64,000 nt of DNA from Octopus sinensis (taxonomy: Eukaryota), in contig NC_043015.1 of assembly GCF_006345805.1 (NCBI RefSeq), positions 13,206,001-13,270,000 on the forward strand. Direction: 5' to 3'. Under the pieces are notes generated by a model. It searched no databases. It was not told the origin of the DNA and saw only the letters and a program-made list of their open reading frames with translations. A program made the translations under genes and the position numbers. How positions within the stretch are numbered: position 1 is the stretch's first letter; each line of letters starts with the position of its first letter. This document shows positions 41,192 through 48,520 of this stretch, piece after piece.

Positions 41192-41319
41192 TTAAAACAT
41201 AGCGTATCTTGCTGTAGTTGAGTTCTTTTGGGCTTTCGTCATGATTTGAACCAGGAAACTGGACAAACTGCGTTTACGCCTTTGAACCATGTTGGAGATG
41301 TTGTCCAAGTCGCTGGCAA
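41192..41319 (-). CDS. coding exon 3 of a secreted prepropeptide gene (VASDLDNISNMVQRRKRSLSSFLVQIMTKAQKNSTTARYAMF*)
   Basis: Acceptor ATTTATTTTAG| at 41320; phase 1 matches the exon 2 donor (G+TT=Val); contains an RRKR convertase/furin site; candidate AATAAA signals at about 40305-40381. Confidence 0.75.
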
Positions 41320-43985
41320 CTAAAATAAATAAATATACATATATGATGGAGTGATAATTAAAGAACAAAAGTAAGAAAGTAACATCAATATATAGAAAAA
41401 TAGAAAAATCAGATAGAAATATTTTGCAAATGCACAAGATCACATAGTTATAAGGTGATTAAGGCAATGTGTATTTCATTTTATATTTTAGAGTTTTAGT
41501 AAAGTAAGTGAAAAAAATTACTTTAACGAGGAATAAAAAAAAACAACAACAATGGAGTCGATGCCAGATTACTTAATTCACATTGTTTATGTACCCGAGA
41601 AATCATGAATAAATTAAATTAAATCAAGAGTGTGTGACCAATTTCTTGAATTTCCCTATCAGAAATAGTTAAATAGTAATTAACTTTATTGATTTCAGGA
41701 TCAGGTAAAAGAGTTCGAATCTGTTCAAGAGAAATTCGAAATGCAAGTGAAATACCTATGGCCAAAAATATTAAATCATTTGAAGAGTCAGCTGGTCGAG
41801 GGATTATCTTCTGCTCGAGAATTTTCCACAGATTTGGGCGAAAGAAAAAATTCGTTCACATTTTATCACAGTAACCGATCTGCTTGGCGTGTATGGATCT
41901 ATTGATATTTTAATAATTTATCGCTGAACAAATGAAGTAAATCGTTTCTTCGATTACATAGTTCTCTCCGCATATTAGAATAAAAATTTAGGCATATGCT
42001 TTAAAGGATGGTTATTAACATTAAGCCGAATTAATTTTGACCGACATATATCGGTTATTTCTGTTCCAACAACAACCTTGTAATGTGCCTGCTTTTAACG
42101 GTTTTGTTCACTTTCCTGTCAATAAGTATTGTGTCTATATTGCCTCCGGGCAAAGGTTCAACATTTTACATCCCATCACTTGAATTGTGTCACTGGAAAA
42201 CCATTCAACTTTCAATGACCCAAACAGCTTAGGTGCTGCACACAGTTTCTGCTCATTGCTGTTAGCAAAGAAATCACAATATAACTGACGATTATTTCAT
42301 CCGCTTGTTCTGTTAATTCCAAATCCACATAGCTTTGAGAGGAAGGATTAATTTTACAGTGTGTAGCGGAAAGATTTAATTTGTTAATTTTATAGATTGA
42401 CTGAAAAAGCTGCCGAAATGCTGTATTCATTACACTTACAAAAATTCTGAATTTTTTTGTTTCATTCCAATAAGAAACAAAGAAGCGGGATTTGAAATCG
42501 AATCGTCCAGATACCGGAAGAAATGCCGCTAAGCATTTCGTCCGATGCACTCGCCACCATGAATGAATACATAAATAAATTTCTACTATAGGCACAATGC
42601 CTGAAACTTCGAGGGTCAGGGCTAGTCGAGTAACGGTGAAAGGCAAAGTCGATCTTGGCGGAACTCAGAACATAAAGAACTGGAATGACTACATAAACAA
42701 TAATCCTTTCTACTATAGGCACAAAACCTGAAATTTTGGGGAGGAGGGCTTATCGATTACAGAGACCCCAGTACTCAGCTGGTACTTTTTAGTCGACCCC
42801 GAGAGAATGAAAGGTAAAGTCGATCTGGGAGGAATTTGAACTTAGGACATAAGGGCGGACGAAATTTCGCTAAGCATTTTGTTCGGCGCGATAACGATTC
42901 AACCAGCTCGCCACCTTGACTACATAAATAATAATGATTTCAAATGTTGGTATAAAGCCAACAATTTCGGGGAAGGGTGTAAGTCGATTACATAGACCCC
43001 CCCCCGTGCTCAATTGATACTTATTTTATCAACCCCGAAAGGATGAAAAGTAATGTCGGCATCGGAGGAATTTGAACTCAGAACGTAAAGACAGACGAAA
43101 TGCCGATAAGCATTTTGTCCAGCATGCTAACGATTCTACTAGCTCGCTACCTTGAGTACATAAATAGTAACGATCATAGGTATAACAATAATAAATATTT
43201 GCATGGTTGTTGCAAGGAGGAAATAAAAAAGTTATGAATTTTATAGTGTATCCAAAAACATAAGATTAGTAGCTAAAGAAGCTTCTATTTGGAATAGAAA
43301 CTCTGCCATGGATTTAATTTTCCGAGAATTGACTACCAAATCAGCGTTTATGGAATGATTTTGTTTTTCTTGGTCTTATGATCTGGATTTACAGAAAAGT
43401 AAGAAATTAGTTCTAATGTTTATGACTGTGTTAAGTCAATGGCGATGCTAACTAAGAACCATACAAGCGGGATGGACCTGGTTTACTAGATAATTATTGT
43501 CACAGTAGACTCGCCATATAATGACTTCTTTTGAATCAGTTCAAGGTTCATATTCACAAAGAAGACGGCGGTGGGTGATTTAATCGTTTGCAACATCTTC
43601 CTGTTGCTATTTTATCGACCCTGGATAAATAAAAAGTGAAGCCCTTCAATGGTCTTTGAATAAACTCCAAATATAGAAGCGAAACTATATATATATTTCA
43701 AATACTGTCACACCTCATCTTATGTCGTTTCGAGATTTGTCTTTTTCGACTTTACGTCTTTTGTTTTTTGGGTATTAAAAGTGATTATCTTATAAAAATG
43801 CAGTATTGCTGGTAACTTATTTTATTGATTACAAAGAGGTGAAAGACAAATCGACCACGATGATATTGAGATCTGTGATGTTGCGAGACGAAATTTAATA
43901 CTGCTAGATATTTTAACTAATCTATTATTGTTTTTGTTAGCTCCCCGACTTTCTATAGACAATGAAGATTCTTCAGAGAACTTAC

Positions 43986-44127
43986 CATCAGCTAATTTTT
44001 TCAAATCTTCGATACTGATGTAATGTTTCACGGTATTACCTTTGGTGTCATCTAGGTAGGAAGGTGCAGCCAGAACGAAGCCCATGGTGGAGCATGTAAC
44101 GAGGAGGATGAGAACAAGGCGAGACAT
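43986..44127 (-). CDS. coding exon 2 of a secreted prepropeptide gene (signal peptide and pro-region)
   Basis: Acceptor TTCTTTCTTTGCAG| (exon starts 44136); ATG in ACTATG context; MSRLVLILLVTCSTMGFVLA|APSY signal peptide; donor GATG|GTAAGT at 43986/43985. Confidence 0.8.
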
Positions 44128-44704
44128 AGTTGAAATCTGCAAAGAAAGAAACGAATGAATAATAATACCTTGCTTTTCATTTAATACAATATTGCAAAGT
44201 TGGATTATCTTATGTTCATGCTTCCCAAAGCATTAGCAGCGAAAGTAAATTGAAATGGTTTCAAACTGAAGCTCGAAACTCCAATCGAAATTACAACTTC
44301 CGACAAAAGTAATTTCAAAATTACGTAATAAACGAAAGCAGATTGAAATAATTCTCTTGTGAGGTTCGATACCATCTTGAGACGCTTTTACGCGATCACC
44401 TTAATATTGGTTTCAAATTTTGACACAAGGCCAGAAATTTTAGGGGTGGGGTAAATCGATTACATCGACCCCCAGTGTTCGACTGGTATTTTTTTATCGA
44501 CCCCGAAAGAATAAAAAACAAAGTTGACCACTTCGGAATTTGAACTCAGAACCTAAAGTCGGCTGAACTGCCGCTAAACATTTCGCTCGGCGTGCTAACG
44601 ACTCTGCTACTCCGCCACCTTAAGCTTTCTTAACATTGTGTTTCGTATATAAACATGAAAGCAGTGACATTGCCGTGTGAACAGCGATCTTATACTTGCC
44701 CAAG

Positions 44705-44735
<31 letters not shown>

Positions 44736-47274: not shown

Positions 47275-47379
47275 GCTGGTAGACAGGGAGGTAGATTGTG
47301 AGGTAGCAAGGTAGCTTCATTGGCAGGTAAACAACTAGTTAGCTAGCTAGATAGGAAGAGTGATTAATTGTTCAATAGT

Positions 47380-47433
<54 letters not shown>

Positions 47434-48385
47434 TGTGTAAAGTGACAAAGACGATGTAAGTTAAAGAGTTATAAATAATAGTTTCTATTATAGGAACAAG
47501 GCCTGGAATTTGGGATAAGGGTATAGTCGATTACATCGACTCAATAGTCAACTGGTACTTATTTTATCGGCATCGAAAGGATGAAAGACTAAGTTGAACT
47601 CGGCAGATTCTGAACTCAGAACGTAGACGGAGGAAATGCTGCTAAGCATTTTGCCCGGCGTGCTAACGATTCTTATTTCTTTATTGCCCACAAGGGGCTA
47701 AACACAGAGGGGACAAACAAGGACAGACAAAGGTATTAAGTCGATTACATCGACTCCAGTGTGTCTAGTACTTAATTTATCGACCCTGGAAGGATGAAAG
47801 GTAAAGTCGACCCCGGCGGAATTTGAACTCAGAACGTAACGATAGACGAAATACTGCTAAGCATTTCGCCCGGTGTGCTAACGATTCTGATTTCTTCATT
47901 GCCCACAAGGGGCTAAACATAGAGGGGACAAACGGATTAAGTCGATTACATCGACTCCAGTGCGTAACTAGTGCTTAATTTATCGACCCCGGAAGGATGA
48001 AAGGCAAAGTCGACCTCAGCGGAATTTGAACTCAGCGGAATTTGAACTCAGAACGTAGCGGCAGACGCAATACCGTTAAGCATTTCGCCCGGCGTGCTAA
48101 TGTTTCTGCTAGCTTGCCGCCTCAATAATTAAAGATTTGCTGGAAGAGAGTTAATATATGGAATTACAAAGCCGATGAGAAATACCTGCGTGTGAATGTG
48201 TATGGAGATGGAGAAATGGAGAAAAATTCGTGAGAGCGAAAAAGACAATGGCAAAAATAAAAGAAAGAGAAAACTTGAATGTAAAGTTAGTGTTTAACTC
48301 GAGAGGATATTTCAGCTTTCAAAAGTCAAATGAAGTAAAAGTGTTCTCGAAAAGTGCGGCTAAACGATGTCAAAGCAATACTTAC

Positions 48386-48488
48386 TTTTGGTGTGATCAC
48401 ACTTGATGTGGTTTGAAGAGGTTTTTTGTTGTTATCTCCCACGAGGTCTGTAGGTAGAGAGGATTACTTTGGCAATCAGCTGACGAAT
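48386..48488 (-). other. non-coding exon 1 (5'UTR) of the prepropeptide gene
   Basis: Starts at Inr TCATTC (A at 48488), contains no ATG, ends CCAAAA|GTAAGT. Confidence 0.7.
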
Positions 48489-48520
48489 GACTTGAATCAC
48501 CCTGAGGTCGGCTTTTTATA
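48485..48520 (-). promoter_or_regulatory. TATA box plus initiator core promoter
   Basis: TATAAAAAG at 48520-48512 and Inr TCATTC with its A 32 nt downstream, which is near-canonical spacing. Confidence 0.7.

Follow-up and report, generated by a model that had tools for sequence, protein, structure and literature searches.

A spliced Octopus gene predicted to encode a small secreted peptide precursor

The gene and its transcript

We analyzed a 64,000 nt stretch of the Octopus sinensis genome (NC_043015.1, positions 13,206,001 to 13,270,000; hereafter the window, whose numbering is used throughout) and focused on the interval 41192..48520, where an earlier reading of the bare sequence (the original prediction) had placed a complete three-exon gene for a secreted prepropeptide. 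We found that the gene is real and is spliced as proposed. A sequence check verified all coordinates of the gene model on the minus strand, and the TATA box, the initiator (Inr)-like element, the noncoding first exon, and the two coding exons all lie where they had been placed (Table 1). The coding exons are compatible in phase and contribute 142 + 128 = 270 nt, which specify 89 residues, and both introns have GT-AG ends. Exon 3 starts at 41319, the start ATG at 44127 has an A at position -3, and a scan of the minus strand from 48530 to 48386 found no ATG. The exon 1 junction is identical in the O. vulgaris and O. bimaculoides gene models.

Table 1. Features of the gene and of its predicted product
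Feature	Positions	Strand	Basis and remarks
TATA box	48513..48520	-	sequence; first T 32 nt upstream of the Inr-like A; putative promoter element
Inr-like element	48485..48490	-	sequence; A at 48488; start site unpinned, one contig extends to 48506
Exon 1, noncoding, ATG-free	48386..48488	-	contigs; GT donor at 48385
Intron 1	44137..48385	-	4249 nt, GT-AG; carries repeat copies and microsatellites
Exon 2	43986..44136	-	151 nt: 9 nt of untranslated region (UTR), ATG at 44127, residues 1-47 plus one base
Signal peptide (predicted), residues 1-20, cut before Ala-Pro	44068..44127	-	hydropathy peak 2.5-3.4; Val at -3, Ala/Ser at -1 in 4/4 proteins
Middle segment of 40 residues, first part (residues 21-48)	43986..44067	-	includes helix start at 38-41
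Intron 2	41320..43985	-	2666 nt, GT-AG, phase 1; P0008, the distant relative, has it at the same position
Middle segment, remainder (residues 48-60), amphipathic helix	41282..41319	-	computed/predicted
RRKR, predicted furin-type convertase site, residues 61-64	41270..41281	-	invariant in 4/4 relatives
Predicted C-terminal 25-residue peptide (65-89)	41195..41269	-	average mass 2824.3; Cys-free; without amidation Gly
Stop codon	41192..41194	-	sequence
3' UTR	39700..41191	-	contig cover in 4/4 runs; broken at microsatellites
Further 3' UTR, inferred	38700..39699	-	contigs about 1 kb longer; if colinear, they end next to an AC repeat at 38700-38715

The evidence for splicing comes from contigs of sequencing runs. 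The run search gave 24 runs, including 15 with a small share that we guessed to be RNA (none is recorded as RNA); four of these 15 were aligned (X1, X5, X7, and X8, one run from each of four studies with two organism labels), and the other 11 were not used, nor were four runs that shared next to nothing with the gene. Both junctions that had been predicted, 43986/41319 and 48386/44136, were recovered. The joint of exons 2 and 3 (41319/43986, with CT..AC ends on the plus strand) is present in contigs of all four runs, with 151 letters on its short side. The joint of exons 1 and 2 is seen directly in X5, X7, and X8, in which 44136 is continued in register to 48386 by contigs of matching length and depth (lengths 1163, 403, and 1238, at depths of 78.5, 898.4, and 142.2, respectively). 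In X1, the edge at 48386 is seen in bin depth only (3.27 = 79.7 x 3/73), and about 31 letters of the contig fall outside exon 1. In all four runs, depth was 0 in the nonrepeat intronic and upstream bins 41360-41525, 44182-44347, 48170-48315, and 48535-48753. Depth ranged about tenfold across the runs (78 to 898), although the depth of contigs gauges expression poorly.

At the 5' end, the X5 contig extends to 48506, which lies 18 nt upstream of the Inr A, and those of X7 and X8 end at 48467; contigs of this kind cannot fix the exact start of transcription. At the other end, the 3' UTR extends at least 1.5 kb beyond the stop codon. The transcript is therefore longer than the interval 41192..48520, which had been described as a complete gene: its exons and junctions stand, but it omits the 3' UTR, which contigs cover as far as 39700.

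X1 and X5 are identical to the window across the coding sequence, and X8 differs from it by three silent changes and one replacement (pN/pS 0.09, p 0.036). Two replacements in X7, at 41225 and 41229 (residues 78 and 79), both match the residues found in Argonauta, which suggests that X7 carries an older allele or comes from a different species that shares the label. We considered RNA editing as the source of the Gln-to-Arg change in X7 and dropped it, because an adjoining change that is not of the editing type accompanies it and both match Argonauta. The introns hold copies of a short interspersed repeat at 42500-43150, 44350-44600, and 47510-48110, and contig depth over these copies is very high in all four runs; this repeat family is thus abundant in transcripts.

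Relatives and precursor architecture

A search of the genome (2.72 billion bases) gave a single match for each coding exon. Gene models for the same protein exist in two other Octopus species, all of them uncharacterized: CAI9736542.1 (89 residues) and CAI9736541.1 (112 residues) in O. vulgaris, and XP_014773698.1 (LOC106871639, 188 residues) and UniProt A0A0L8HBJ6 (89 residues) in O. bimaculoides. The product of the window exons is identical to the O. vulgaris protein at 88 of 89 residues, the sole difference being Lys34 in the window versus Thr, and the O. bimaculoides protein is 99% identical to that of O. vulgaris. The gene model itself is thus not new, having already been predicted in these two species; no named family was matched.

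A protein search against 1.84 billion representatives returned four matches: the O. vulgaris protein, Argonauta hians GAB1605380.1 (P0007, 63%), the Logan protein P0008 (35%), and a dog ankyrin-repeat protein (P0009, E-value 4.9e-4), which we discarded as unrelated. P0008 occurs on 47 contigs, the longest of 2754 nt, and we infer that it comes from a more distant cephalopod. It can be aligned to the Argonauta protein over 83 residues without a gap, and its best match in the genome is the locus at 41192..48520; a second genomic match (E-value 3.3) was rejected because it has an internal stop. A profile search (4 of 2071 candidates) added P0010, which equals P0008 as far as the equivalent of the end of window exon 2 and then differs, and which shares its upstream Met-Ser-Arg start. 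P0010 is probably the gene of P0008 translated into its intron, and on that reading the position and phase of intron 2 are conserved. No relatives were found beyond the set comprising Octopus, Argonauta, and P0008/P0010, although short peptides are hard to detect at a distance and an older origin is possible. The Octopus and Argonauta orthologs share the 89-residue core, the Octopus models share the exon junctions, and all are annotated without a function.

Two of the Octopus models and the partial Argonauta model have N-terminal extensions, and those of the Octopus models are closed in the window genome: the 112-residue form requires an ATG that is missing here, and the 188-residue form runs through a stop and a frame change. 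Residues 1-47 of the 188-residue O. bimaculoides model map to 56217-56354 on the minus strand (80% identity, with an in-frame stop), and the model joins at 48531, immediately upstream of the TATA box. The stretch at 56217-56354 may be a far upstream exon or an artifact of the gene model; the window genome has no GT after 56217.

To compare the anatomy of the precursors, we aligned four full-length proteins and judged the signal peptide heuristically, by hydropathy and the -3/-1 rule. The predicted layout of signal peptide, pro-region, and R-X-K-R site is supported: in all four proteins a hydrophobic N-terminus ends in Val-x-Ala/Ser before Ala-Pro, the middle segment is exactly 40 residues long, and RRKR is followed by an invariant Ser-Leu-Ser-Ser and a tail of 25-26 residues, which carries an invariant Ser-Thr-Thr and Tyr near its end. 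Identity to Argonauta and to P0008, respectively, is 11/20 and 6/20 in the signal, 9/16 and 2/16 in the first part of the middle segment, 17/24 and 6/24 in the helix, and 15/25 and 11/25 in the tail. The tail is thus better kept than the spacer against P0008 (11/25 versus 8/40), but not against Argonauta (15/25 versus 26/40).

The predicted 25-mer has three basic and no acidic residues, is Cys-free, and is not amidated, as had been described. It had also been said to look amphipathic, and this did not hold: its hydrophobic moment lies within that of shuffled sequences in all four proteins (p 0.26, 0.26, 0.37, and 0.93). The middle segment, in contrast, is amphipathic beyond shuffles in 4/4 (p 0.017-0.019; the proteins are related, so these values are not independent). 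Net charge of the 25-mer is +3, +3, +5 (Argonauta), and +1 (P0008), and that of the middle segment is -4 in Octopus, -7 in Argonauta, and -1 in P0008. A dibasic pair lies inside the Argonauta and P0008 tail peptides and not inside that of Octopus, and the tail may be cut further in those two lineages. Asn54 is invariant, and it forms part of a glycosylation sequon in Octopus and Argonauta only.

None of the exons, full models, or four aligned proteins has a Pfam match above the cut-offs. The PDB gave no match for P0004 and six weak ones for the profile, none of them a hormone chain; NCBIfam gave weak bacterial matches only. In a protein language-model atlas, the neighbors of P0004 and P0008 are mostly precursors of PDH, DH31, urotensin, NPF, tachykinin, and CCK, together with Frey. 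This placement supports a prepropeptide layout and not any single family. The precursors of PDH/PDF, DH31, urotensin-2B, tachykinin-3, and CCK share with the octopus protein a signal peptide, a spacer, a basic cut site, and a single short peptide at the C-terminus, but the octopus gene has no family match, amidation Gly, or Cys, and the neighbors come from many unrelated families that have only this layout in common.

PDF/PDH peptides are about 18 residues long and amidated; the octopus protein has no PF06324 match, and its peptide is 25-26 residues long without the Gly (atlas score 0.92, with 148 shared features). Frey/C11orf94 (atlas score 0.91, with 138-139 shared features) gave no PF15878 match. 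The NPY/NPF RXRF/Y-amide end is missing, and there is no PF00159 match. The features of a cationic helical antimicrobial peptide, a conserved charge together with amphipathicity, are absent at the charges and shuffle values given above. RxLR effectors carry their motif after the signal peptide and originate in oomycetes; UniRef100_A0A0L8HBJ6 (P0006) is labeled "RxLR effector protein", but it has no RxLR motif and no Pfam match, and we rejected the label, which looks like an automatic misnomer. We also dropped resemblances that the 25-mer bears to PTH-related peptide, nematode PDF, and Aplysia sensorin, which are unconserved across the orthologs or need an amide. Calcitonin/DH31 peptides are marked by two Cys and/or a C-terminal Pro-amide (PMC6425005, PMC7200681), and none of the four peptides has a Cys or a terminal Pro-Gly. 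Protostome PTH-type peptides end in PXXX-amide (PMC8398477); here, no amidation Gly and no parathyroid Pfam match were found.

Among the papers listed by our searches, we found no mention of the locus identifier, accessions, or motifs in main texts, although the Sepia neuropeptidome, which was not covered, may list the precursor. Nor was the precursor found in the searchable supplements of PMC6425005, PMC9712504, PMC9815951, PMC7693380, and PMC10138644 (the first two covered in part). Two optic-lobe genes, obimac0019980 and obimac0022194, are likewise uncharacterized cephalopod cell-type markers (bioRxiv 10.1101/2022.06.11.495763; PMC9815951). The former has a signal peptide and two helices, and the latter is luqin-like (PMC9815951); the E-value of 3e-88 reported for obimac0019980 would imply a protein longer than 89 residues.

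Function of the predicted product

An expression clue comes from a study of 10-day paralarvae, in which A0A0L8HBJ6 is listed at a log2 fold change of -2.43, that is, about 5.4-fold higher in whole animals co-fed zoeae than in Artemia-fed ones (PMC6635378). It is the last of 635 rows, with the smallest change. Among the last 60 rows, the best hits are to arthropods (33), vertebrates (26), and octopus (1, A0A0L8HBJ6 itself), and the other 59 stand at 3.8 to 6.1 log2 units (PMC6635378). Housekeeping genes with changes of 4-6 log2 units account for many of the 33 rows with an arthropod best hit (PMC6635378, supplementary file 1, sheet 3), and much of the zoea-upregulated list may therefore be prey RNA. 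The enrichment terms of that list accordingly tell little about the tissue in which A0A0L8HBJ6 is expressed. The runs that we aligned may or may not be independent of this diet contrast.

We favor the explanation that the gene encodes a convertase-cut signaling peptide from a family restricted to cephalopods, with a possible link to nutrition, and we put its probability at roughly 0.55. Judged from its sequence, the product of 89 residues is probably secreted and then cleaved, which would free the 25-residue peptide. The precursor is predicted to enter the secretory pathway and to lose its signal after residue 20; a furin-type or prohormone convertase would then cut after residue 64, at RRKR, to give a helical 40-mer that is acidic and a 25-mer that is basic and unamidated. 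The 25-mer, or else the 40-mer, would bind a cell-surface receptor, and the 25-mer would probably act as a hormone or neuropeptide that possibly reports nutritional state. Known ligands of the G-protein-coupled receptors (GPCRs) that make up family B are linear helical peptides of about the length of the 25-mer, and our best guess at the receptor is an orphan member of that family. In molluscs, clusters A and B of the family-B receptors are expanded, and they are described as orphan (PMC7200681). We prefer a signaling peptide to a venom component, a pheromone, or an antimicrobial peptide because the gene is present in one copy, changes slowly within Octopus, and has kept its cut site and tail, and because it has a long 3' UTR and is expressed early and in response to diet.

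Several observations weigh against this explanation. The 25-mer lacks Cys and an amidation signal, and part of the invariant RRKR-SLSS block may mirror the preference of the convertase rather than receptor binding. AlphaFold predicts one helix from residue 39 to 80 that runs through RRKR, with no tertiary fold (mean predicted local distance difference test score 71, predicted template modeling score 0.37, 4 sequences). The helix is better kept than the 25-mer in the comparison with Argonauta, in which the 25-mer is only 15/25 identical, and X7 differs from the window by three silent and three replacement changes, two of the latter within the 25-mer (p 0.13). The atlas scores (0.89-0.92, with 128-148 shared features) are below the tool's family level, and the recognition score of P0008 is below 2300. 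The diet contrast is a single and small one, of three against three (false discovery rate < 0.05; PMC6635378). A0A0L8HBJ6 occurs once in that paper's file, and is hence outside its wild-animal and temperature lists, and no row there contains the word "neuropeptide". By comparison, allatostatin C is reported to be 100% identical across cephalopods (bioRxiv 10.64898/2026.02.18.706622).

These points leave room for other readings, of which the original prediction had itself named several when it proposed a lineage-specific neuropeptide, pheromone, or salivary/venom peptide. A lineage-restricted secreted prepropeptide with no matching family is supported. Three observations weaken the idea of a venom component, a pheromone, or an antimicrobial peptide: the gene has one copy, its product is nearly identical within Octopus, and the peptide of the distant relative is weak in amphipathicity and charge. 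We consider it unlikely that the product is an exocrine peptide of the salivary gland or digestive tract, possibly a venom component, that is raised when hatchlings eat crab larvae. The prepropeptide layout is common to venom peptides, and the roughly tenfold spread of depth among the runs could fit such a source, though depth reflects expression poorly, but one copy that is near-identical across Octopus species is unlike the expanded, fast-changing families of venoms. The higher level in zoea-fed paralarvae (PMC6635378) also fits an exocrine source, whereas the absence of the peptide from a posterior-salivary-gland proteome supplement (PMC7693380) speaks weakly against it, as small peptides are easily missed. 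Also unlikely, in our estimation, is that the gene works mainly through the uncut secreted helix of 69 residues, or through the middle segment of 40, in a structural or binding role, with the 25-mer secondary. The predicted helix would suit such a product, as would its hydrophobic or invariant positions at a spacing of 3-4 (42, 45, 52, 59, 66, 70, and 73), the amphipathicity and fixed length of the middle segment, and the identity of 17 of 24 helix residues to Argonauta. However, the conserved hydrophobic positions show no significant clustering by angle (p 0.12, 0.15), the helix is kept less well than the 25-mer against P0008, and RRKR, invariant and with Ser-Leu after it, makes a textbook convertase site; RXXR sites are treated as convertase sites in published work (bioRxiv 10.1101/802215). 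A role as a reproductive or pheromonal peptide, or as a diverged PDF-like ligand of the PDFR-related receptor that octopus has in addition to PDFR (PMC7200681), is improbable: the PDH precursor cluster is the top atlas match (0.92) and the sperm-protein (Frey) cluster is first or second, but the 148 shared features fall short of the 170 typical of true family members, there is no Pigment_DH or Frey Pfam match, and there is no amidation Gly. Moreover, PDF is already reported from all eight mollusc classes (PMC6425005), and 10-day paralarvae, which are still far from maturity, already contain the transcript (PMC6635378). Still less probable is a cationic antimicrobial peptide kept inactive by its acidic pro-segment. 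The opposed charges of the 25-mer (+3 in Octopus, +5 in Argonauta) and the middle segment (-4 and -7) agree with that arrangement, but in P0008 they shrink to just +1 and -1, the 25-mer has no hydrophobic moment beyond shuffles in any of the four proteins, and the peptide was not found in the skin-mucus proteome supplement of PMC10138644 or the salivary antimicrobial-peptide supplement of PMC7693380.

The pro-region had further been said to recall faintly the start of Aplysia egg-laying hormone (ELH). Our comparisons do not support this likeness, and a much-diverged descendant of the ELH/DH44/CRH family is the reading to which we give least credence. As a predicted helix of about 40 residues, the middle segment comes near the family peptides in length, and it has a short look-alike start. 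In the ELH/DH44/CRH family, a basic cut site precedes the conserved N-terminal motif; the octopus proteins have no such site ahead of the look-alike, as Lys34 is replaced by Thr in O. vulgaris, O. bimaculoides, and Argonauta, and the motif itself is not conserved except at positions 38 (Ser/Thr) and 41 (Asp), which are kept in all aligned proteins. The Ser/Thr38 and Asp41 pattern, at the predicted start of the helix, fits a helix cap and accounts for the faint likeness. An amidation Gly is absent both before RRKR and at the C-terminal end, whereas the ELH-family product is amidated (PMC6425005). None of the four proteins matched PF02323 or PF00473 (ELH, CRF) at E-values up to 10, with weak matches above about 0.1 filtered, and no hormone chain was among the six weak PDB matches. 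Two papers report that the family was not found in cephalopods (PMC6425005, PMC8398477), which leaves a slot that a diverged member might fill. Profile searches of the genome with the ELH, PDH, and CRF Pfam models gave 1, 0, and 5 matches at E-values of 0.59 or worse, which is uninformative about canonical genes; five of these six loci were translated, and none gave a credible gene.

A bolder form of the signaling-peptide explanation is that the gene encodes a peptide hormone invented in cephalopods that signals nutrition through an orphan family-B GPCR, possibly in the role of the lost ELH/DH44/CRH ligand. We regard this as speculative and unlikely, but if true it would contradict the published view that cephalopod complexity arose without new peptide families. 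A homology-based survey concluded that cephalopods had added none, yet allowed that lineage-specific ones could be missed (PMC6425005). As a conserved, single-copy, spliced, and unnamed gene, the locus is a concrete candidate for a family missed by that survey, and a gene and a defined peptide mass are now at hand for testing orphan octopus receptors. Diet-related mortality is the main obstacle in octopus rearing (PMC6635378), and the diet-responsive listing in hatchlings makes the gene a candidate marker for rearing. If the product is instead that of a gland, or is structural, the gene adds one more uncharacterized small secreted protein.

The rest of the window

We recognized no second host gene among the 16 frames scanned in the window, and found no Rfam families or tRNAs in its 64 kb. 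Immediately upstream of the promoter, at 48833-49354 on the minus strand, lies a 173-codon open frame of Thr/Asn/Pro-rich simple repeats with no Pfam match, and its patchy cover comes from repeat-matching contigs only. A 417-residue frame at 448-1701 has a zinc-knuckle-like motif and no Pfam match of its own. Remains of transposons lie at 448-1701, 5001-7078, 7859-8731, 15828-16966, 21146-22087, and 52515-53224; the pieces recognized with Pfam include endonuclease and reverse transcriptase of long interspersed nuclear elements and transposases of the pogo/Tigger, mariner, and Tc1 types.

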